A stretch of DNA of 64,000 bases from Escherichia coli (GTDB lineage: Bacteria > Pseudomonadota > Gammaproteobacteria > Enterobacterales > Enterobacteriaceae): assembly GCF_016026235.1 (NCBI RefSeq), contig NZ_CP065613.1; one strand, given 5' to 3'. Below the pieces are notes generated by a model that was not told where the DNA came from, searched no databases, and saw only the letters and a program-made list of their open reading frames with translations. Within the stretch, counting starts at the first letter, position 1; each line of letters opens with the position of its first letter. A program made the position numbers and the translations under genes. Below are positions 16,336 to 29,438 of this stretch, piece by piece.

Positions 16336-16668
16336 GTGCCTAATGCCCGCTCTCACGCTGTACTGACCACTGAATCAAAGGTCACGATACGCGGACAAAC
16401 AACTATCCCCGCGCCAGTGCGTGAGGCCTTAAAACTGAAGCCAGGCCTGGACAACATTCATTACGAAATTCTGCCTGGTGGGCAAGTATTTATGTGCCGA
16501 CTGGGAGATGAACAGGAGGATCATACTATGAATGCATTTTTGCGTTTTCTGGATGCAGATATCCAGAACAACCCGCAAAAAACTCGTCCATTCGACATTC
16601 AACAAGGAAAGAAACTTGTCGCTGGCATGGACGTCAACATTGATGATGAGATTGGCGACGACGAATAA
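16336..16668 (+). CDS. prlF: type II antitoxin / transcriptional autoregulator PrlF (AbrB/SpoVT-like)
   Basis: 110-aa ORF with GTG start, acidic C-terminus DDEIGDDE; stop overlaps next ATG (TAATG). Confidence 0.85.
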   Translation: MPNARSHAVLTTESKVTIRGQTTIPAPVREALKLKPGLDNIHYEILPGGQVFMCRLGDEQEDHTMNAFLRFLDADIQNNPQKTRPFDIQQGKKLVAGMDVNIDDEIGDDE

Positions 16669-17132
16669 TGGATTTTCCACAAAGGGTTAATGGTTGGGCG
16701 CTATATGCTCATCCCTGTTTTCAGGAAACCTACGACGCTTTAGTTGCCGAAGTCGAGACATTAAAGGGAAAAGATCCTGAAAATTATTAGAGAAATGCCG
16801 CCACAAAGTTATTGGCAGCAGTTCACAAAGTGATTGAGGAGCATATCACGGTCAATCCATCATCACCGGCATTCCGTCATGGCAAGTCGTTAGGCTCTGG
16901 GAAAAATAAAGACTGGTCACGGGTAAAATTTGGTGCTGGTCGTTATCGTCTCTTCTTTCGTTATAGTGAAAAAGAGAAAGTCATCATTCTGGGATGGATG
17001 AACGATGAAAACACGCTGCGCACCTACGGTAAAAAAACAGATGCCTATACCGTATTCAGCAAAATGTTAAAAAGAGGACATCCTCCTGCCGACTGGGAAA
17101 CCCTCACCCGAGAGACAGAAGAAACCCATTGA
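16668..17132 (+). pseudogene. yhaV: YhaV ribonuclease toxin reading frame interrupted by in-frame TAG at codon 41 (16788..16790)
   Basis: ATG at 16668 gives MDFPQRVNGWALYAHPCFQETYDALVAEVETLKGKDPENY then TAG, then 113 further in-frame codons without stop. Confidence 0.7.
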
Positions 17133-17186: not shown

Positions 17187-17996
17187 TCACTCCCCGACCA
17201 GAATCACTTCAACCCCAGCCTTTCGCAGTCCTTCCAGACTATCCGCAGGAATGCCTTCATCAACAATGATCATGTCGATACGTTGAGTATCAATGATCTT
17301 ATGTAAACTGGAACGATTGAATTTACTGGAATCGGTGACCACGATGATCCGTTCCGCAACTTCGCACATCCGGCGGTTTAAACGGGCTTCATCTTCATTA
17401 TGTGTGCTGACGCCGCGCTCCAGATCGATCGCATCTACACCAAGAAACAGCATATCGAAGTGGTAATTTTGCAGCGATTGCTCAGCCTGATCGCCGTAAA
17501 AAGATTGCGACTGACGGCGCAAATGCCCGCCGGTCATCAGCAGCTCAACGCCTTCCGCTTCCAGCAACGCATTAGCCACGTTCATACCGTTGGTCATCGC
17601 AATTACGTCAGTGTGCTTGCGCATCAGACGAGCAATCTCAAAAGTGGTGGTCCCGGAATCGAGGATCACCCGATGACCTGGCTGAATCAACTCAACGGCA
17701 GCTTTCGCAACGCTGCGTTTCATCGCGGTGTTCAGTGCGCTTTTATCTTCCACTGATGGCTCGACTGACGGCGTCGTGCTATCGCAGATCAACGCGCCAC
17801 CATAGGCACGCACAGCGATCCCCTGCTTTTCCAGAAACGCCAGATCGTTGCGGATCGTCACAGTAGATACGCCATACAATGCCGACAGATCGTTAACCTG
17901 CACACTCCCTTGCTGTCGCAGACGCTGAATGATCTGTTCTCGTCGCTCGCTGGTGCCTGTCACTCGCTTCTCACCTGAAGCGTCGGTATTACTCAT
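17187..17996 (-). CDS. agaR: DeoR-family repressor of the aga regulon
   Basis: 269-aa ORF with DeoR HTH ([20 protein letters not shown]). Confidence 0.9.
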
Positions 17997-18244
17997 AGTA
18001 AGTCCTTTCGTAAAACTTTCGTTTCATTTCGTTTTGCCTATTAACGCCTTTCTATTAAGCAAATGCAAGCCCACCTTGCCCATTGACGCAAGCTACTCTC
18101 GTTTCAGTGACTTTCATTATGTTTCTTTTGTGAATCAGATCAGAAAACTATTATCTTTCGTTTTATTTTTATCTCACCATGACGCAGTATCAACTGAAAC
18201 AAAACGAAAGATTAATATCGCAGTAATCTGAACTGGAGAGGAAA
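17997..18244. promoter_or_regulatory. divergent agaR / kbaZ promoter with multiple CTTTCGTTT-type repeats (AgaR operator-like)
   Basis: Repeats visible: cctttcgtaaaactttcgtttcatttcgtttt, tatctttcgttttattttt, aaacaaaacgaaagatta. Confidence 0.6.
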
Positions 18245-19525
18245 GTGAAACATCTGACAGAAATGGTGAGACAGCACAAAGCGGGCAAAACAAATGGAAT
18301 TTATGCCGTTTGTTCCGCACATCCGCTGGTGCTGGAGGCTGCAATCCGCTACGCCAGTGCAAATCAAACGCCGTTACTGATTGAAGCAACCTCCAATCAG
18401 GTAGACCAGTTCGGCGGTTATACCGGAATGACGCCCGCCGATTTTCGCGGCTTTGTTTGTCAGCTCGCCGACTCGTTGAATTTCCCGCAGGATGCGTTGA
18501 TTCTGGGTGGTGACCATCTGGGGCCAAACCGCTGGCAAAACCTGCCGGCCGCTCAGGCAATGGCCAATGCCGATGATTTGATTAAAAGCTACGTTGCGGC
18601 AGGATTCAAAAAAATCCACCTTGATTGCAGCATGTCCTGTCAGGACGATCCAATTCCCTTAACTGATGACATCGTGGCTGAACGCGCCGCCCGTCTGGCG
18701 AAAGTGGCGGAAGAAACCAGTCTTGAACACTTTGGCGAAGCCGATCTGGAGTATGTCATTGGTACCGAAGTGCCGGTACCTGGCGGCGCGCATGAAACCT
18801 TAAGCGAGCTGGCGGTCACCACGCCGGATGCCGCCCGCGCCACGCTGGAAGCCCATCGTCACGCCTTTGAAAAGCAGGGTCTGAATGCCATCTGGCCACG
18901 CATCATTGCCCTGGTGGTTCAACCCGGCGTCGAATTCGATCACACCAACGTTATTGATTATCAGCCCGCCAAAGCGACCACCTTAAGCCAGATGGTCGAA
19001 AACTACGAAACGCTGATTTTCGAAGCGCACTCTACCGATTATCAAACGCCGCAATCGCTGCGCCAGCTGGTGATTGACCACTTTGCCATTCTGAAAGTTG
19101 GCCCGGCGCTGACCTTCGCCCTGCGTGAAGCTCTGTTCTCTCTGGCGGCGATTGAAGAAGAACTGGTGCCAGCAAAAGCCTGTTCTGGTCTGCGTCAGGT
19201 GCTGGAAAACGTGATGCTCGACCGCCCGGAATACTGGCAAAGCCACTACCACGGTGACGGCAACGCGCGTCGTCTGGCGCGTGGTTATAGCTACTCGGAT
19301 CGCGTGCGCTATTACTGGCCGGACAGCCAGATTGATGACGCTTTCGCTCATCTGGTACGTAATCTGGCGGATTCACCAATTCCGCTGCCGCTGATCAGCC
19401 AGTATCTGCCGCTGCAGTACGTGAAAGTTCGCTCCGGCGAGCTGCAGCCAACGCCACGGGAACTCATTATCAACCATATTCAGGACATCCTGGCGCAGTA
19501 CCACACAGCCTGTGAAGGCCAATAA
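18245..19525 (+). CDS. kbaZ: tagatose-1,6-bisphosphate aldolase non-catalytic subunit
   Basis: 426-aa ORF, GTG start with SD ggagagg. Confidence 0.9.
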
Positions 19526-19547
19526 GCAAAACAAAGAGGAACACGCT

Positions 19548-20021
19548 ATGCCAAATATTGTTTTAAGCCGGATTGATGAACGCTTGATTCACGGTCAGGT
19601 CGGCGTTCAGTGGGTCGGATTTGCGGGGGCAAATCTGGTGCTGGTAGCCAACGATGAGGTTGCCGAAGATCCGGTACAACAAAACCTGATGGAAATGGTA
19701 CTGGCAGAAGGGATCGCCGTACGTTTCTGGACGCTGCAAAAAGTTATCGACAACATTCATCGCGCCGCCGATCGACAGAAAATCCTGCTGGTTTGTAAAA
19801 CACCCGCCGATTTCCTGACGCTGGTGAAAGGTGGCGTTCCGGTGAATCGCATTAACGTTGGCAATATGCACTACGCCAATGGCAAGCAACAAATCGCCAA
19901 AACGGTTTCTGTGGATGCGGGCGATATCGCAGCATTTAACGACCTGAAAGCCGCTGGGGTGGAATGCTTCGTTCAGGGCGTCCCGACAGAGCCTGCTGTG
20001 GACCTCTTTAAATTACTTTGA
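19548..20021 (+). CDS. agaV: PTS N-acetylgalactosamine-specific EIIB
   Basis: ORF track 19512..20021; ATG at 19548 gives 157 aa, MPNIVLSRIDERLIHGQ. Confidence 0.85.
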   Translation: MPNIVLSRIDERLIHGQVGVQWVGFAGANLVLVANDEVAEDPVQQNLMEMVLAEGIAVRFWTLQKVIDNIHRAADRQKILLVCKTPADFLTLVKGGVPVNRINVGNMHYANGKQQIAKTVSVDAGDIAAFNDLKAAGVECFVQGVPTEPAVDLFKLL

Positions 20022-20031
20022 GGGATTCATC

Positions 20032-20811
20032 ATGGAAATCAGTCTGTTGCAGGCATTCGCGTTGGGCATTATCGCCTTTATCGCTGGCCTGGATATGTTT
20101 AACGGCTTAACCCATATGCACCGCCCGGTGGTCCTCGGCCCGTTAGTCGGGCTGGTACTTGGCGATCTGCATACCGGTATTTTAACCGGCGGTACGCTGG
20201 AACTGGTGTGGATGGGGCTGGCCCCGTTGGCGGGCGCACAGCCGCCTAACGTGATTATCGGTACTATCGTCGGCACGGCGTTTGCCATTACTACTGGCGT
20301 GAAACCCGATGTCGCAGTCGGTGTCGCCGTACCTTTCGCTGTCGCAGTACAGATGGGGATTACCTTCCTGTTCTCGGTGATGTCTGGCGTGATGTCTCGC
20401 TGCGACCGGATGGCGGAGAACGCCGATACTCGCGGCATTGAACGCGTAAACTATCTGGCACTGCTGGCACTCGGCACTTTCTATTTTCTCTGCGCTTTCC
20501 TGCCTATCTACTTCGGCGCGGAACATGCAAAAACCATCATTGATGTCCTGCCGCAACGATTAATCGACGGCCTCGGCGTCGCAGGCGGCATCATGCCAGC
20601 AATCGGTTTTGCCGTGCTGCTGAAAATCATGATGAAAAACGTCTACATCCCCTACTTCATCCTGGGCTTTGTTGCCGCAGCCTGGCTCAAGTTACCGGTG
20701 CTGGCTATTGCTGCCGCCGCGCTGGCGATGGCGCTGATCGATCTGTTGCGTAAATCTCCTGAACCGACTCAACCTGCGGCACAGAAAGAGGAATTTGAAG
20801 ATGGCATCTAA
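20032..20811 (+). CDS. agaW: PTS N-acetylgalactosamine-specific EIIC (full length)
   Basis: 259-aa membrane ORF. Confidence 0.85.
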   Translation: MEISLLQAFALGIIAFIAGLDMFNGLTHMHRPVVLGPLVGLVLGDLHTGILTGGTLELVWMGLAPLAGAQPPNVIIGTIVGTAFAITTGVKPDVAVGVAVPFAVAVQMGITFLFSVMSGVMSRCDRMAENADTRGIERVNYLALLALGTFYFLCAFLPIYFGAEHAKTIIDVLPQRLIDGLGVAGGIMPAIGFAVLLKIMMKNVYIPYFILGFVAAAWLKLPVLAIAAAALAMALIDLLRKSPEPTQPAAQKEEFEDGI

Positions 20812-21679
20812 TCAAACCACCCTGCCGAACGTCAGTGAAAACGAAGAAACATTGCTGACTGGCGTCAATGAAAACGTGTATGAAGATCAGAGCATTGGCG
20901 CGGAGCTGACGAAAAAAGATATCAACCGCGTCACCTGGCGTTCCATGCTGTTACAAGCGTCTTTTAACTACGAACGTATGCAGGCTTCTGGCTGGTTGTA
21001 CGGTCTGCTGCCTGCTCTGAAAAAGATCCACACTAATAAACGCGACCTAGCGCGCGCCATGAAGGGGCATATGGGTTTCTTCAATACCCATCCGTTTCTG
21101 GTGACATTTGTTATCGGCATTATCCTTGCGATGGAGCGTTCTAAGCAGGACGTTAACAGTATTCAGAGCACCAAAATTGCCGTCGGTGCGCCGCTCGGCG
21201 GGATTGGCGATGCAATGTTCTGGCTAACGCTACTGCCGATTTGTGGCGGGATTGGAGCCAGTCTGGCATTGCAAGGCTCCATTCTTGGCGCAGTCGTCTT
21301 TATTGTGCTGTTCAACGTGGTACACCTGGGGCTGCGTTTTGGTCTGGCGCATTATGCTTACCGCATGGGCGTGGCGGCGATTCCACTCATTAAAGCGAAT
21401 ACCAAAAAAGTCGGCCATGCTGCGTCTATCGTTGGGATGACGGTAATCGGTGCGCTGGTGGCAACCTATGTTCGTTTAAGCACCACGCTGGAAATCACAG
21501 CGGGCGACGCAGTGGTTAAGTTACAGGCTGATGTTATTGACAAACTGATGCCTGCCTTCTTACCGCTGGTCTATACCCTGACCATGTTCTGGCTGGTACG
21601 TCGCGGCTGGAGTCCGCTACGCCTGATTGCGGTTACCGTGGTTCTCGGCATCGTCGGTAAATTCTGCCATTTCCTTTAA
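20801..21679 (+). CDS. agaE: PTS N-acetylgalactosamine-specific EIID
   Basis: ORF track 20795..21679; ATG at 20801 gives 292 aa; overlaps agaW stop. Confidence 0.85.
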   Translation: MASNQTTLPNVSENEETLLTGVNENVYEDQSIGAELTKKDINRVTWRSMLLQASFNYERMQASGWLYGLLPALKKIHTNKRDLARAMKGHMGFFNTHPFLVTFVIGIILAMERSKQDVNSIQSTKIAVGAPLGGIGDAMFWLTLLPICGGIGASLALQGSILGAVVFIVLFNVVHLGLRFGLAHYAYRMGVAAIPLIKANTKKVGHAASIVGMTVIGALVATYVRLSTTLEITAGDAVVKLQADVIDKLMPAFLPLVYTLTMFWLVRRGWSPLRLIAVTVVLGIVGKFCHFL

Positions 21680-21696
21680 ATACAATGAGGTATTAG

Positions 21697-22131
21697 ATGT
21701 TAAGTATTATTTTGACAGGGCATGGCGGGTTTGCCAGTGGCATGGAAAAAGCAATGAAGCAAATCCTCGGTGAGCAATCGCAGTTTATCGCCATCGATTT
21801 TCCGGAAACCTCAAGCACCGCGCTGCTTACATCGCAGCTTGAAGAGGCCATCGCCCAACTGGATTGTGAAGATGGCATTGTTTTTCTGACGGATTTGCTG
21901 GGCGGCACGCCGTTTCGCGTAGCTTCAACGCTGGCGATGCAAAAACCGGGCTGTGAAGTGATCACCGGCACCAATTTGCAACTGCTACTGGAGATGGCGC
22001 TGGAGCGCGAAGGGTTAAGCGGTGAAGAATTCCGTGTACAGGCGCTGGAGTGTGGACATCGTGGGCTGACCAGTCTGGTGGACGAGTTAGGCCGCTGCCA
22101 TGAAGAATGTCCGGTCGAGGAAGGGATATGA
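21697..22131 (+). CDS. agaF: PTS EIIA component (mannose family)
   Basis: 144-aa ORF; stop overlaps agaA start (ATGA). Confidence 0.85.
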   Translation: MLSIILTGHGGFASGMEKAMKQILGEQSQFIAIDFPETSSTALLTSQLEEAIAQLDCEDGIVFLTDLLGGTPFRVASTLAMQKPGCEVITGTNLQLLLEMALEREGLSGEEFRVQALECGHRGLTSLVDELGRCHEECPVEEGI

Positions 22132-23261
22132 CACACGTTCTGCGCGCCAGAAGGCTGCTGACTGAAGAGGGATGGCTCGATGACCATCAGTTGCGTATTG
22201 CTGACGGTGTCATCGCAGCAATCGAACCGATTCCAGTGGGCGTGACTGAACGCGATGCGGAACTGCTCTGCCCCGCTTACATCGACACCCATGTACACGG
22301 TGGTGCGGGCGTTGATGTAATGGATGACGCGCCGGATGTGCTCGACAAGCTGGCAATGCACAAGGCACGCGAAGGTGTCGGCAGTTGGTTACCGACTACC
22401 GTAACCGCGCCGCTTAATACCATTCATGCGGCGCTGAAACGTATTGCGCAACGTTGCCAACGCGGCGGACCTGGTGCGCAAGTGCTGGGGAGTTATCTCG
22501 AAGGACCGTACTTCACGCCGCAGAATAAAGGCGCGCATCCGCCGGAGTTGTTTCGCGAGCTTGAAATTGCCGAGCTGGATCAATTGATTGCCGTTTCTCA
22601 GCACACCTTACGCGTGGTAGCGCTGGCACCGGAAAAAGAGGGGGCATTGCAGGCCATCCGCCATCTTAAACAGCAAAATGTACGAGTGATGCTGGGGCAT
22701 AGCGCGGCGACCTGGCAACAAACTCGCGCCGCGTTTGATGCTGGTGCCGACGGCCTGGTGCATTGCTATAACGGGATGACAGGTTTACATCACCGCGAAC
22801 CGGGAATGGTTGGCGCGGGATTAACGGACAAGCGCGCCTGGCTGGAACTGATAGCCGATGGTCATCATGTGCATCCGGCGGCGATGTCGCTGTGTTGTTG
22901 CTGTGCGAAAGAGAGAATCGTGCTGATCACCGACGCGATGCAGGCAGCCGGGATGCCGGATGGTCGCTATACGTTATGTGGCGAAGAAGTGCAGATGCAC
23001 GGTGGCGTTGTCCGTACCGCGTCCGGTGGGCTGGCGGGCAGTACGCTGTCTGTTGATGCGGCAGTGCGCAATATGGTCGAGTTGACGGGCGTAACGCCTG
23101 CGGAAGCCATTCATATGGCATCGCTGCATCCGGCGCGAATGCTAGGTGTTGATGGTGTTCTGGGATCGCTTAAACCGGGCAAACGCGCCAGCGTCGTTGC
23201 GCTGGATAGCGGGCTGCATGTGCAACAAATCTGGATTCAGGGTCAATTAGCTTCGTTTTGA
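22128..23261 (+). CDS. agaA: N-acetylgalactosamine-6-phosphate deacetylase (full length)
   Basis: ORF track 22107..23261; ATG at 22128 gives 377 aa, MTHVLRARRLL. Confidence 0.85.
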   Translation: MTHVLRARRLLTEEGWLDDHQLRIADGVIAAIEPIPVGVTERDAELLCPAYIDTHVHGGAGVDVMDDAPDVLDKLAMHKAREGVGSWLPTTVTAPLNTIHAALKRIAQRCQRGGPGAQVLGSYLEGPYFTPQNKGAHPPELFRELEIAELDQLIAVSQHTLRVVALAPEKEGALQAIRHLKQQNVRVMLGHSAATWQQTRAAFDAGADGLVHCYNGMTGLHHREPGMVGAGLTDKRAWLELIADGHHVHPAAMSLCCCCAKERIVLITDAMQAAGMPDGRYTLCGEEVQMHGGVVRTASGGLAGSTLSVDAAVRNMVELTGVTPAEAIHMASLHPARMLGVDGVLGSLKPGKRASVVALDSGLHVQQIWIQGQLASF

Positions 23262-23335
23262 TGGTTTGCTCCATTATTGGGCCTTCACTTCCCCCGTAAG
23301 GCCTTTCTTTTTCTTTCGTTTTGATCTGTGCAGCG

Positions 23336-23393
23336 GTGTCGGATGCGACGCTAACGCGTCTTATGCGACCTACGGTACGCCGCATCCGGCAAT
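23336..23393. repeat. REP-like palindromic element
   Basis: gtcggatgcgacgctaacgcgtcttatgcgacctac ... gccgcatccggc, REP-like dyad. Confidence 0.5.
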
Positions 23394-23399
23394 CGGTGA

Positions 23400-23611
23400 A
23401 CATAGCGACGTCATTACGCAATTCTTTAATCTTCCCTTGTCTTTTCTTTCAATGATCGCAGATTTCGTTTTATTTCCTTTTTCTCCATTGAACTTTCGGT
23501 TTCTTTTCTATAGATTTTAATCAACGAAAGACATCACCAAGTGAAATGAAACGAAAGGCAAGTGAAAGCGACAACGCCCGACGTCAAGTTCATCAGACTA
23601 AGGATTGAGTT
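23400..23611 (+). promoter_or_regulatory. agaS promoter region with CTTTCGTTT-type repeats (AgaR operator-like)
   Basis: Repeats: gatttcgttttatttcc, aactttcggtttcttttc, aacgaaagacatc, gaaatgaaacgaaaggcaagtgaaagc. Confidence 0.55.
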
Positions 23612-24766
23612 ATGCCAGAAAATTACACCCCTGCTGCCGCCGCATCCGGTACATGGACTGAAGAAGAGATCCGCCATCAGCCTCGCGCATGGATCCGTTC
23701 ACTCACCAACATCGACGCGCTACGTTCCGCGCTCAATAACTTCCTTGAACCGTTACTGCGCAAAGAGAATCTGCGGATCATCCTGACCGGAGCCGGAACC
23801 TCGGCATTTATCGGTGACATCATCGCGCCGTGGCTCGCCAGCCATACCGGTAAAAACTTCAGCGCCGTACCAACCACCGATCTGGTCACTAATCCGATGG
23901 ACTACCTGAACCCAGCTCATCCGCTGCTGTTGATCTCCTTCGGTCGATCCGGCAACAGCCCGGAAAGCGTCGCTGCCGTGGAACTGGCAAATCAATTTGT
24001 ACCGGAATGCTATCACCTGCCGATTACCTGCAACGAAGCGGGCGCTCTTTACCAAAACGCGATCAACAGCGATAACGCGTTTGCCCTGCTGATGCCCGCA
24101 GAAACGCACGATCGCGGCTTTGCGATGACCAGCAGCATTACCACCATGATGGCCAGCTGCCTCGCGGTTTTCGCACCTGAGACGATCAACAGCCAAACCT
24201 TCCGCGACGTGGCGGATCGTTGCCAGGCGATCCTGACCTCACTGGGCGATTTCAGCGAAGGTGTGTTTGGTTACGCACCGTGGAAACGGATCGTTTATCT
24301 CGGCAGCGGTGGCTTACAGGGCGCAGCACGCGAGTCGGCGCTGAAAGTGCTGGAACTGACGGCGGGTAAACTGGCGGCCTTTTATGATTCTCCAACCGGA
24401 TTCCGTCATGGACCAAAATCGCTGGTCGATGACGAAACGCTGGTGGTGGTATTTGTCTCCAGCCACCCTTACACCCGTCAGTATGATCTTGATCTGCTGG
24501 CTGAACTCCGCCGTGACAACCAGGCAATGCGCGTAATCGCCATCGCCGCGGAAAGCAGCGACATCGTCGCTGCCGGTCCACATATCATCCTACCGCCGTC
24601 ACGTCACTTTATCGACGTTGAGCAGGCATTTTGCTTCCTGATGTACGCCCAGACGTTTGCACTGATGCAGTCGCTGCACATGGGCAATACGCCGGATACC
24701 CCATCAGCCAGTGGCACCGTTAACCGCGTGGTGCAAGGCGTAATCATTCATCCGTGGCAGGCATAA
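23612..24766 (+). CDS. agaS: galactosamine-6-phosphate deaminase/isomerase (SIS domains)
   Basis: 384-aa ORF, SD aaggattgag. Confidence 0.9.
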   Translation: MPENYTPAAAASGTWTEEEIRHQPRAWIRSLTNIDALRSALNNFLEPLLRKENLRIILTGAGTSAFIGDIIAPWLASHTGKNFSAVPTTDLVTNPMDYLNPAHPLLLISFGRSGNSPESVAAVELANQFVPECYHLPITCNEAGALYQNAINSDNAFALLMPAETHDRGFAMTSSITTMMASCLAVFAPETINSQTFRDVADRCQAILTSLGDFSEGVFGYAPWKRIVYLGSGGLQGAARESALKVLELTAGKLAAFYDSPTGFRHGPKSLVDDETLVVVFVSSHPYTRQYDLDLLAELRRDNQAMRVIAIAAESSDIVAAGPHIILPPSRHFIDVEQAFCFLMYAQTFALMQSLHMGNTPDTPSASGTVNRVVQGVIIHPWQA

Positions 24767-25639
<873 letters not shown>

Positions 25640-25733
25640 TCATTAGTTTTTTATGATTTATCCCAATGTACTTCCCGATTAATATCGGGGAGTGCCTTAA
25701 TGGAAAAGGAGATGACTAAACCTTAATAAATAC

Positions 25734-25742
25734 ATCAGTACA
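25734..25742. repeat. left copy of 9-bp target-site duplication ATCAGTACA
   Basis: Identical 9-mer directly abuts both IS1 ends. Confidence 0.9.
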
Positions 25743-25757
25743 GGTAATGACTCCAAC

Positions 25758-26261
25758 TTATTGATAGTGTTTTATGTTCAGATAATGCCCGATGACTTTG
25801 TCATGCAGCTCCACCGATTTTGAGAACGACAGCGACTTCCGTCCCAGCCGTGCCAGGTGCTGCCTCAGATTCAGGTTATGCCGCTCAATTCGCTGCGTAT
25901 ATCGCTTGCTGATTACGTGCAGCTTTCCCTTCAGGCGGGATTCATACAGCGGCCAGCCATCCGTCATCCATATCACCACGTCAAAGGGTGACAGCAGGCT
26001 CATAAGACGCCCCAGCGTCGCCATAGTGCGTTCACCGAATACGTGCGCAACAACCGTCTTCCGGAGACTGTCATACGCGTAAAACAGCCAGCGCTGGCGC
26101 GATTTAGCCCCGACATAGCCCCACTGTTCGTCCATTTCCGCGCAGACGATGACGTCACTGCCCGGCTGTATGCGCGAGGTTACCGACTGCGGCCTGAGTT
26201 TTTTAAGTGACGTAAAATCGTGTTGAGGCCAACGCCCATAATGCGGGCAGTTGCCCGGCAT
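25758..26261 (-). CDS. insB: IS1 InsB (transposase C-terminal part, made as InsAB' by -1 frameshift)
   Basis: 167-aa [25 protein letters not shown]... Confidence 0.9.
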
Positions 26262-26455
26262 CCAACGCCATTCATGGCCATATCAATGATTTTCTGGTGC
26301 GTACCGGGTTGAGAAGCGGTGTAAGTGAACTGCAGTTGCCATGTTTTACGGCAGTGAGAGCAGAGATAGCGCTGATGTCCGGCGGTGCTTTTGCCGTTAC
26401 GCACCACCCCGTCAGTAGCTGAACAGGAGGGACAGCTGATAGAAACAGAAGCCAC
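26180..26455 (-). CDS. insA: IS1 InsA (transposition inhibitor / transposase N-terminal part)
   Basis: 91-aa [43 protein letters not shown] (zinc-finger + HTH). Confidence 0.9.
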
Positions 26456-26510
26456 TGGAGCACCTCAAAAACACCATCATACACTAAATCAGTAAGTTGG
26501 CAGCATCACC

Positions 26511-26519
26511 ATCAGTACA
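26511..26519. repeat. right copy of 9-bp target-site duplication ATCAGTACA
   Basis: Identical to 25734..25742. Confidence 0.9.
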
Positions 26520-26582
26520 ATATCGCAACAATAATATATTTAAAAAAATTATATTATTCAACTTTATGGTGAGGATTACACA

Positions 26583-27059
26583 ATGAGCAGTCCAAATATT
26601 CTCTTAACCCGTATTGATAACCGTCTGGTTCACGGTCAGGTTGGCGTGACCTGGACATCCACCATCGGTGCGAATCTGCTGGTAGTCGTGGATGATGTTG
26701 TCGCTAACGATGATATTCAACAGAAATTAATGGGTATTACCGCAGAAACCTACGGCTTTGGCATTCGTTTCTTTACTATCGAAAAAACCATTAACGTCAT
26801 CGGCAAAGCTGCACCGCATCAGAAGATCTTCCTGATTTGCCGTACGCCACAAACGGTACGTAAATTGGTAGAAGGTGGCATTGACCTGAAAGATGTCAAC
26901 GTCGGCAATATGCATTTCTCGGAAGGGAAAAAGCAAATCAGCAGTAAAGTTTATGTCGATGACCAGGATCTCACGGACTTACGTTTTATTAAACAACGTG
27001 GCGTGAATGTTTTCATTCAGGACGTCCCTGGCGATCAAAAAGAACAAATCCCTGACTAA
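26583..27059 (+). CDS. agaB: PTS galactosamine-specific EIIB
   Basis: 158-aa ORF, paralogous to agaV (LTRIDNRLVHGQVG). Confidence 0.9.
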   Translation: MSSPNILLTRIDNRLVHGQVGVTWTSTIGANLLVVVDDVVANDDIQQKLMGITAETYGFGIRFFTIEKTINVIGKAAPHQKIFLICRTPQTVRKLVEGGIDLKDVNVGNMHFSEGKKQISSKVYVDDQDLTDLRFIKQRGVNVFIQDVPGDQKEQIPD

Positions 27060-27097
27060 ATCTAAAATCGCCTTAATATTGGTTTGAGGTAATAAAA

Positions 27098-27901
27098 ATG
27101 CATGAAATAACCCTACTTCAGGGATTATCCCTGGCGGCGTTAGTTTTCGTTCTGGGGATTGATTTTTGGCTGGAAGCCTTATTTTTATTCCGCCCGATAA
27201 TCGTTTGTACCCTAACTGGCGCTATTCTCGGTGATATTCAGACTGGCTTAATTACCGGTGGTCTGACAGAGTTGGCTTTCGCCGGATTAACCCCTGCAGG
27301 TGGTGTTCAGCCGCCCAACCCGATTATGGCGGGTCTGATGACCACCGTCATTGCATGGTCTACGGGCGTTGATGCCAAAACAGCAATTGGTCTTGGCCTG
27401 CCGTTTAGTTTGTTAATGCAGTACGTCATTCTGTTCTTCTATTCCGCTTTCTCATTATTTATGACCAAAGCCGATAAATGCGCGAAAGAGGCGGATACGG
27501 CAGCGTTTTCCCGGCTTAACTGGACAACGATGCTCATCGTCGCTTCAGCGTATGCGGTGATTGCGTTCCTCTGTACTTACCTGGCACAAGGGGCGATGCA
27601 GGCGCTGGTGAAAGCGATGCCCGCCTGGTTGACCCACGGCTTTGAAGTGGCTGGCGGTATTCTGCCTGCCGTTGGTTTTGGCTTGCTGCTGCGCGTAATG
27701 TTCAAAGCGCAATATATCCCTTACCTGATCGCCGGTTTCCTGTTTGTTTGCTACATCCAGGTCAGCAACCTGTTGCCGGTTGCCGTACTGGGCGCAGGCT
27801 TTGCGGTGTATGAGTTTTTCAATGCGAAATCCCGGCAGCAAGCGCAACCGCAGCCCGTTGCCAGTAAAAATGAAGAAGAGGACTACAGCAATGGGATCTG
27901 A
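27098..27901 (+). CDS. agaC: PTS galactosamine-specific EIIC
   Basis: 267-aa membrane ORF. Confidence 0.9.
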   Translation: MHEITLLQGLSLAALVFVLGIDFWLEALFLFRPIIVCTLTGAILGDIQTGLITGGLTELAFAGLTPAGGVQPPNPIMAGLMTTVIAWSTGVDAKTAIGLGLPFSLLMQYVILFFYSAFSLFMTKADKCAKEADTAAFSRLNWTTMLIVASAYAVIAFLCTYLAQGAMQALVKAMPAWLTHGFEVAGGILPAVGFGLLLRVMFKAQYIPYLIAGFLFVCYIQVSNLLPVAVLGAGFAVYEFFNAKSRQQAQPQPVASKNEEEDYSNGI

Positions 27902-28682
27902 AATCAGTAAAAAAGATATCACCCGTCTGGGCTTTCGTTCGTCGCTGCTGCAAGCGAGCTTTAACTACGAAAGGATGCAGGCGGGCGGTTTTACCTGGGC
28001 GATGTTGCCGATCCTGAAAAAGATTTATAAGGACGACAAACCGGGCCTAAGCGCGGCGATGAAAGATAACCTCGAATTTATTAATACCCACCCGAATCTG
28101 GTCGGATTCCTGATGGGGTTATTAATTTCGATGGAAGAAAAAGGAGAAAACCGCGACACCATTAAAGGCCTCAAAGTGGCACTGTTTGGCCCAATCGCCG
28201 GGATTGGCGATGCGATTTTCTGGTTTACTTTGTTGCCGATTATGGCGGGAATTTGCTCATCATTTGCCAGCCAGGGAAACCTGCTGGGGCCGATTCTATT
28301 TTTCGCCGTTTACCTGCTTATCTTTTTCCTGCGCGTCGGCTGGACCCACGTCGGTTATTCAGTCGGCGTGAAGGCGATCGATAAAGTGCGAGAGAACTCG
28401 CAGATGATTGCTCGCTCGGCAACCATCCTCGGGATCACGGTAATCGGGGGGCTGATCGCTTCGTATGTGCATATTAACGTGGTGACATCGTTTGCCATCG
28501 ACAGTACCCACAGCGTCGCACTGCAACAGGATTTCTTCGATAAAGTCTTCCCGAACATTTTACCGATGGCCTACACCCTGCTGATGTATTACTTCCTGCG
28601 GGTGAAAAAAGCGCATCCGGTGCTGTTAATCGGCGTGACTTTTGTGCTCTCTATTGTTTGTTCCGCATTCGGCATTTTGTAA
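27891..28682 (+). CDS. agaD: PTS galactosamine-specific EIID
   Basis: ORF track 27744..28682; ATG at 27891 gives 263 aa (MGSEISKKDITRLGF); overlaps agaC end. Confidence 0.85.
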   Translation: MGSEISKKDITRLGFRSSLLQASFNYERMQAGGFTWAMLPILKKIYKDDKPGLSAAMKDNLEFINTHPNLVGFLMGLLISMEEKGENRDTIKGLKVALFGPIAGIGDAIFWFTLLPIMAGICSSFASQGNLLGPILFFAVYLLIFFLRVGWTHVGYSVGVKAIDKVRENSQMIARSATILGITVIGGLIASYVHINVVTSFAIDSTHSVALQQDFFDKVFPNILPMAYTLLMYYFLRVKKAHPVLLIGVTFVLSIVCSAFGIL

Positions 28683-29438
28683 ATGGAACGAGGCACTGCG
28701 TCTGGCGGTGCCTCTTTACTTAAGGAATTTCATCCTGTGCAAACCCTTCAGCAAGTTGAAAACTATACGGCGTTAAGTGAACGTGCCAGCGAATATTTAT
28801 TGGCCGTGATCCGTAGCAAACCGGATGCCGTGATTTGCCTGGCGACCGGAGCCACGCCATTACTGACGTATCATTATCTGGTAGAAAAAATCCACCTGCA
28901 GCAGGTTGATGTCAGCCAGCTCACCTTCGTCAAGCTCGACGAATGGGTGGATCTGCCATTAACGATGCCTGGCACCTGCGAAACTTTCCTGCAACAGCAT
29001 ATCGTGCAGCCGCTGGGGCTACGTGAAGACCAGCTCATCAGCTTTCGCTCCGAAGAGATAAATGAGACAGAGTGCGAACGGGTAACGAACCTGATTGCGC
29101 GCAAAGGCGGTCTGGATTTATGCGTTCTCGGATTGGGGAAAAACGGTCATCTTGGGCTGAACGAACCGGGAGAAAACCTGCAACCGGCCTGCCATATCAG
29201 TCAACTTGATGCCAGAACACAGCAACATGAGATGTTAAAAACCGCGGGTCGCCCCGTGACTCGTGGGATCACCTTAGGCCTGAAGGATATTCTCAATGCC
29301 CGCGAGGTTTTGTTACTGGTGACTGGCGAAGGAAAGCAGGATGCGACAGAACGTTTTCTCACGGCTAAAGTCTCTACCTCTATCCCGGCTTCGTTTTTGT
29401 GGCTGCACAGTAACTTTATTTGTTTAATTAATACCTAA
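28683..29438 (+). CDS. agaI: galactosamine-6-phosphate isomerase/deaminase-like (NagB family)
   Basis: 251-aa ORF. Confidence 0.85.
   Translation: MERGTASGGASLLKEFHPVQTLQQVENYTALSERASEYLLAVIRSKPDAVICLATGATPLLTYHYLVEKIHLQQVDVSQLTFVKLDEWVDLPLTMPGTCETFLQQHIVQPLGLREDQLISFRSEEINETECERVTNLIARKGGLDLCVLGLGKNGHLGLNEPGENLQPACHISQLDARTQQHEMLKTAGRPVTRGITLGLKDILNAREVLLLVTGEGKQDATERFLTAKVSTSIPASFLWLHSNFICLINT

Follow-up and report, generated by a model that had tools for sequence, protein, structure and literature searches.

IS1 is polar in either orientation and its polarity is relieved by rho mutations, a notion that goes back to the gal and lac insertion mutants of the 1970s. In these classical cases the element likewise lies within a polycistronic sugar operon, the gene upstream of it staying expressed and those downstream losing their expression. 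The polarity of the gal and lac insertions was proven both genetically and biochemically, whereas in the case described here we infer it for an intergenic insertion that breaks no gene. A search of the open-access literature for support of IS1 polarity in both orientations did not return any.

The genes for the use of N-acetylgalactosamine (Aga) and galactosamine (Gam) are themselves known to vary among Escherichia coli strains. K-12 carries a 2.3-kb agaW'-agaA' deletion, and EDL933 has a truncated agaC and a split agaI (PMC3668189). Both resemble the strain that provided the 64-kb stretch of DNA analysed here (the window) in having a strain-specific lesion that removes one of the two branches. 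However, the branch lost in K-12 is that for Aga, while the one predicted to be lost in the window strain is that for Gam; in EDL933, it is again the Gam branch that is lost, by point lesions rather than by an insertion sequence. The distal genes have been treated as a single operon, agaS-kbaY-agaBCDI (PMC5797941), and in a genomic SELEX of constitutive RpoD promoters they appear as one unit (agaS--agaBCDI); since agaB is named nowhere else in that work, the screen lists no agaB promoter (PMC3946193). A key piece of information came from an agaS deletion in E. coli C, which was Gam- and could not be complemented by agaSY or by agaBCD alone, but only by a clone running from agaS through agaD, and which was read by its authors as polar on agaBCD (PMC3668189). 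The fact that only the agaS-to-agaD clone complemented this mutant suggests that agaBCD lack a sufficient promoter of their own. In addition, agaI was found to be dispensable for the use of both galactosamine and N-acetylgalactosamine (PMC3668189), so that any phenotype predicted for the loss of agaBCDI expression rests on agaBCD.

The window is ordinary E. coli chromosome and covers the stretch from tdcE to nusA-infB and secG, with gar, prlF-yhaV, the aga cluster and yraHIJK in between. The aga cluster is present in its complete 13-gene form (agaR, kbaZ, agaVWEFA, agaS, kbaY and agaBCDI), and all 13 open reading frames are full length and free of internal stops. A single IS1 was found in the 64 kb. 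It sits between kbaY and agaB, in an AT-rich spacer of 166 bp, 103 bp past the kbaY stop and 72 bp ahead of the agaB start, with its transposase genes facing away from agaB (Table 1). An earlier reading, made from the sequence alone, had described a complete 768-bp IS1 with inverted repeats, insA, insB and the A6C site, placed in this spacer so as to split the aga cluster, with insA-insB on the minus strand, opposite to the aga genes, and with the N-acetylgalactosamine branch (agaVWEF and agaA) left intact. All the coordinates that it gives proved correct, as did each of its structural statements, and the genes of that branch are indeed full length without stops.

Table 1. Coordinates of the IS1 insertion and of the surrounding aga features in the window.
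Feature	Position	Strand	Remarks
agaR, kbaZ, agaV, agaW, agaE, agaF, agaA, agaS	17187..24766	+ (agaR minus)	all intact
kbaY	24779..25639	+	286 aa, intact; last gene upstream of the insertion
Native 12-bp stem-loop	25668..25695	+	GUACUUCCCGAU-UAAU-AUCGGGGAGUGC; 47 nt upstream of IS1; no T-tract
9-bp duplication, left copy	25734..25742		ATCAGTACA; abuts the IS1 end directly
IS1	25743..26510	-	768 bp, IS1A type
IRR	25743..25765	-	kbaY side; GGTAATGACTCCAACTTATTGAT
insB frame	26261..25758	-	167 aa as annotated in K-12; yields InsAB' with insA
A6C (AAAAAAC) programmed -1 frameshift motif	26204..26198	-	IS1 positions 307-313
insA	26455..26180	-	91 aa, GTG start; Pfam Zn_ribbon_InsA and HTH_Tnp_IS1
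IRL	26488..26510	-	agaB side; + strand bears outward-facing TTGGCA at 26497-26502
9-bp duplication, right copy	26511..26519		ATCAGTACA; abuts the IS1 end directly
Remaining native spacer and agaB ribosome-binding site	26520..26582	+	GAGGA at 26571-26575; no sigma-70-like site above 8/12
agaB	26583-27059	+	intact; now parted from the agaS promoter by IS1
agaC	27098-27901	+	intact; downstream of IS1
agaD	27891-28682	+	intact; downstream of IS1
agaI	28683-29438	+	intact; downstream of IS1

Comparison with the IS1A copy of K-12 MG1655 (insA1/insB1, b0022/b0021, identical to IS1E) showed that the two elements share the 768-bp length, the inverted repeats, insA, insB, the A6C motif and a 232-residue InsAB'. 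They are identical at 767 of the 768 bases, the sole change being an A to T substitution at IS1 position 262, which is synonymous in insA; otherwise, the window copy differs from the K-12 one in its chromosomal location. The terminal inverted repeats (23 nt each; those of the IS1 family begin with GGT(G/A)ATG) are imperfect, with 18 of the 23 positions (78%) complementary. A -1 shift at the A6C motif yields an InsAB' transposase of 232 residues without a stop, which scores 243 bits against the NCBIfam equivalog transpos_IS1 (cutoff 100) and contains the Pfam domains Zn_ribbon_InsA (1.7e-20), HTH_Tnp_IS1 (3.3e-28) and DDE_Tnp_IS1 (1.9e-77). A promoter-like site on the minus strand (26503->26476) coincides with the position of the IS1 insA promoter. 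Judged from its sequence, the element is IS1A in every tested respect, a known element that is apparently fully functional, with all sequence requirements for transposition intact.

IS1 elements duplicate 8-9 bp of their target, usually 9. The two copies of ATCAGTACA flanking the element are perfect, and this nonamer occurs only once at the empty site of the genomes VTB97432v and FDAARGOS_943. The match of a 9-mer at two fixed positions has a probability of about 4e-6 by chance. A repeat finder reports 10 nt instead of 9 because the terminal IS1 base, C26510, is the same as the base preceding the left copy. When the element and one copy of the repeat are taken out, the window flanks rejoin on both empty-site genomes at 100% identity, with nothing lost or gained. 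The nearest complete genome is that of FDAARGOS_943, with 99.9% identity over the first 25 kb (the next best reaches 99.1%). Over the shared 63.2 kb, the two sequences are separated by 30 SNPs and two indels, of 10 bp and 1 bp, and IS1 is the sole structural difference, the spacer of FDAARGOS_943 having the empty 166-bp form. Queries spanning the junctions gave no colinear match at the window site in 5,426 complete E. coli genomes, and the exact 30-nt left junction was found neither in the GTDB species representatives nor in a metagenome contig collection. Because a relative only 30 SNPs away has the empty site and the other genomes searched lack the junctions, the insertion is considered recent and private to the strain. 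The sequence evidence thus identifies it as a simple, recent transposition, private to this strain among all collections searched. The perfect 9-bp repeat pointed out by the sequence-only reading is therefore confirmed, and the description of the transposition as "recent, unrearranged" holds in view of the empty site in the close relative, the colinear flanks and the unshared junctions. Reports of an IS1 between kbaY and agaB were not found in the literature; no insertion at this site is present in the collections searched, but nothing about it is new in kind. It provides a clean private marker separating the window strain from FDAARGOS_943.

Two explanations would deprive the insertion of this simple origin. 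One is that an assembler misplaced an IS1 repeat and that the true chromosome has the empty site. IS1 is indeed multicopy in E. coli (the median genome has 10 matching places), repeats of this kind can be misplaced, and the window junctions were found in no other genome. However, misplacement of a repeat would not leave a single-copy sequence perfectly duplicated over 9 bp exactly at both IS1 ends, and the flanks are colinear with the relative and 100% identical across the junction, which makes an artefact highly improbable. The other explanation is that the element marks the edge of a more extensive rearrangement caused by IS1, for instance an inversion, an adjacent deletion or a composite transposon. 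Events of this sort are common at the aga locus of other strains, where IS1-to-yraI/yraJ deletions, a garD-IS1-agaB junction and two IS1 bracketing agaB were found. In the window, on the contrary, neither flank is missing, the two are colinear with the relative, and an intact duplication joins them; a second IS1 is absent from the 64 kb. Given the colinear flanks and the lack of a second IS1 in the window, a larger rearrangement is effectively refuted.

With regard to its consequences, the insertion probably silences the galactosamine uptake genes agaBCDI by polarity. This is also what the sequence-only reading had proposed, and all that could be examined here agrees with it. In this account, one IS1A copy transposed recently into the kbaY-agaB spacer, making the usual 9-bp duplication. 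Transcripts from the AgaR-controlled agaS promoter would enter the element through IRR and, because the transposase genes face away from agaB, they would be antisense to insB and insA. Before they reach agaB, these transcripts would have to traverse about 870 nt of RNA that is untranslated and partly C-rich, and the most likely outcome would be Rho-dependent premature termination, that is, classical IS1 polarity. As a result, agaBCD (encoding the galactosamine PTS components IIB, IIC and IID) and agaI would be expressed poorly or not at all, while the expression of agaS, kbaY and the entire kbaZ-agaVWEFA operon would be unaffected, with Aga+ Gam- as the predicted phenotype. Several features of the sequence are consistent with this proposal. 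The plus-strand RNA across 25796-26146 (around 350 nt) is untranslated and contains 30-37% C and 23-26% G, a C-rich and G-poor composition that favours Rho loading, and an open reading frame with a Shine-Dalgarno sequence was not found in this stretch. A weak terminator-like hairpin was also detected on the plus strand at 26370-26384. No plus-strand sigma-70-like site scoring above 8/12 was found between IS1 and agaB by the tool scan or by a more permissive one, applied to both the occupied and the reconstructed empty site. Taken as a whole, the explanation combining a recent IS1A transposition with Rho-dependent polarity on agaBCDI and an Aga+ Gam- phenotype is considered likely, the transcription block and the phenotype being its predicted parts. 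Polarity is rarely absolute, and a low level of read-through could still permit slow growth on galactosamine. No decay was seen in agaBCDI, which is expected if the insertion is recent but would also fit a continued use of these genes.

A different consequence can be envisaged, in which IS1 does not silence agaBCDI but uncouples these genes from AgaR, so that a weak native or hybrid promoter provides low constitutive expression. The outward-facing TTGGCA in IRL agrees with the -35 consensus in five of six bases, at a distance of 8 bp from the IS1 end, and the flank that it faces is very AT-rich, the empty spacer having a GC content of 28%. Moreover, hybrid promoters were reportedly described for IS1 insertions by Prentki et al. 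in 1986, and the 72-bp remnant of the spacer, with about 20% GC, belongs to the kind of AT-rich DNA that can hold weak promoters missed by consensus scans. However, TTGGCA pairs best with CAATAT, at an unfavourable spacing of 15 nt and with a combined score of 8/12, and none of the hexamers found at 16-18 nt (AATATC, ATATCG and TATCGC) has the conserved final T; with such poor -10 partners, the candidate hybrid promoter was judged weak. The tool scan also returned no promoter site on the plus strand and, in E. coli C, the native spacer gave too little agaBCD expression once upstream transcription was disturbed (PMC3668189). An escape from AgaR control is consequently regarded as unlikely, and silencing by polarity is retained as the preferred reading.

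The native part of the spacer displays some additional features. The 103 nt upstream of IS1 fold with -25.3 kcal/mol (z = -2.95) and contain the stem-loop listed in Table 1. An intrinsic terminator at this place was considered and rejected, given that this strong hairpin has no T-tract; the structure may instead be a stabiliser of mRNA 3'-ends or a processing site that sets the levels of agaS-kbaY versus agaBCDI. On the other side of the element, an AT-rich inverted repeat (AATAATATATTT / AATTATATTATT, 26530-26558) is found just upstream of agaB. The same region contains a minus-strand promoter-like site, TTGAAT-17-TATATT (26561->26533), which aims from the native spacer at the IRL/insA side and, if active, could supply read-through transcription to the IS1 transposase genes. 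Read-through from upstream was reported to raise IS1 transposition in a 2025 paper (PMC12428005).

The insertion found in the window is not an isolated case. At least 18 distinct IS1 junctions, in both orientations, were mapped within the kbaY-agaB-agaC region (equivalent to 25640-27900 in the window). Counting from the kbaY stop, simple insertions with 8-9-bp duplications were located at +28, +75, +95 (the window), +102, +165, +185, +192, +329, +332, +350, +458, +700 and +774, and IS1-adjacent deletions reaching yraI or yraJ at +102, +176, +211, +313 and +589; in one further case, everything from garD to the spacer was deleted. An IS1 within about 650 bp past the kbaY stop was present in at least 83 genomes, 32 with the orientation seen in the window and 51 with the opposite one, although these counts are inflated by clonal descent and it is the distinct junctions that demonstrate many independent events. 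In contrast, the interval of about 650 bp past the agaS/kbaY boundary, that is, within kbaY, yielded a single genome with an IS1 in the window orientation and none in the opposite one. An apparent orientation bias was dismissed, as the recovery of a single orientation was an artefact of a strand-fixed query and the reversed-IS1 query matched the 51 genomes mentioned above. A query made of IS1 plus both flanks was covered at 80% or more in 279 genomes; the two of them that were inspected carry, instead of the window insertion, other IS1 copies in agaC, at +774 and +700. Of the 5,426 genomes, 5,247 have an uninterrupted kbaY-agaB junction.

The closest counterparts are the independent insertions found within the same 166-bp spacer in PT62/LP5-1 (+102), in CFSAN061771 and WS4437A-1 (+75) and in ECONIH5 (+28, opposite orientation). 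Like the window insertion, they display 8-9-bp duplications and have the same predicted effect on agaBCDI. However, none of them occupies the window site (+95..+103), and some correspond to other IS1 variants (96-99% identity). ECONIH5 carries, besides the IS1 at +28, an IS4-family element in the same spacer. A second group comprises the insertions at +774 in agaC, which many of the 279 genomes have in common (VTB97432v, Sanji and ECONIH6, for example), and those in agaB in other lineages, in which the galactosamine PTS is lost and agaS-kbaY are kept; these, in contrast to the insertion in the window, break coding sequence. In strain 3045, two inverted IS1 copies (+165 and +774) bracket agaB in a composite-transposon-like arrangement. 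UK_Dog_Liverpool and EC21Z-078 share the same right IS1 junction in yraJ and differ in the left one, which lies at +102 in the spacer in the former and at +313 in agaB in the latter; the pair resembles nested adjacent deletions that have extended from a single fixed IS1 end.

The GC content is 28% in the spacer, 44% in agaB and 52% in kbaY, and the asymmetry between kbaY and the downstream region fits the combination of a preference of IS1 for AT-rich DNA with selection that is purifying for kbaY and relaxed for the galactosamine PTS. It could also be envisaged that the window insertion is one more instance of a population-wide pattern, in which the kbaY-agaB-agaC segment of about 0.8 kb gathers IS1 insertions and IS1-adjacent deletions much more frequently than its neighbour kbaY. 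Loss of AgaBCD, a PTS of the mannose family, might be selected for, perhaps because the system is costly or because phage or bacteriocins use it as an entry route. This idea is seen as rather doubtful, and none of the present observations requires positive selection for AgaBCD loss. In descriptive terms, IS1 has recurrently hit agaB and agaC together with the spacer while sparing agaS-kbaY, which suggests that many E. coli lineages can do without the galactosamine branch. Lesions affecting one branch of the aga/gam genes are already documented, and the recurrent IS1 pattern fits the known variation of the aga locus; the window insertion is, accordingly, an ordinary event, with textbook IS polarity as the proposed mechanism. 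Its practical meaning derives from the prediction that the window strain grows on N-acetylgalactosamine and not on galactosamine, in spite of its intact-looking aga genes. As all 13 of them are intact and a Gam- phenotype is nonetheless predicted, a metabolic reconstruction based on annotation would misjudge the strain. The case serves as a warning, of local value only, that a cluster with 13 intact aga genes may still be Gam-.

The comparison with FDAARGOS_943 revealed other differences in this part of the chromosome. In that genome, a 1-bp deletion puts agaA out of frame, the gene being annotated as a nagA pseudogene, while the window agaA is intact at the corresponding position (22183). With an IS1 in one and an agaA frameshift in the other, the window strain and FDAARGOS_943 carry different private aga lesions. 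Within agaBCDI, the sole SNP between them is found at window position 27512, in agaC, and it may be private to FDAARGOS_943 and not to the window strain, because the AgaC of the former has its own protein accession, unlike the common allele found elsewhere.

Finally, the prlF-yhaV module (16336-17132), which adjoins agaR, also shows changes. The window copy of the prlF antitoxin gene lacks 10 bp (CGCTAATGCT, at 16348), which leaves the ATG out of frame. As the lost stretch is one short tandem-like repeat unit, the frame now begins at the GTG at 16336 and the N-terminus hardly changes (VPNARSHAV versus MPANARSHAV). In the yhaV toxin gene (16668..17132), the reading frame is interrupted by a stop at codon 41 (16788-16790), which is also present in FDAARGOS_943, and this toxin-antitoxin module seems to be decaying.
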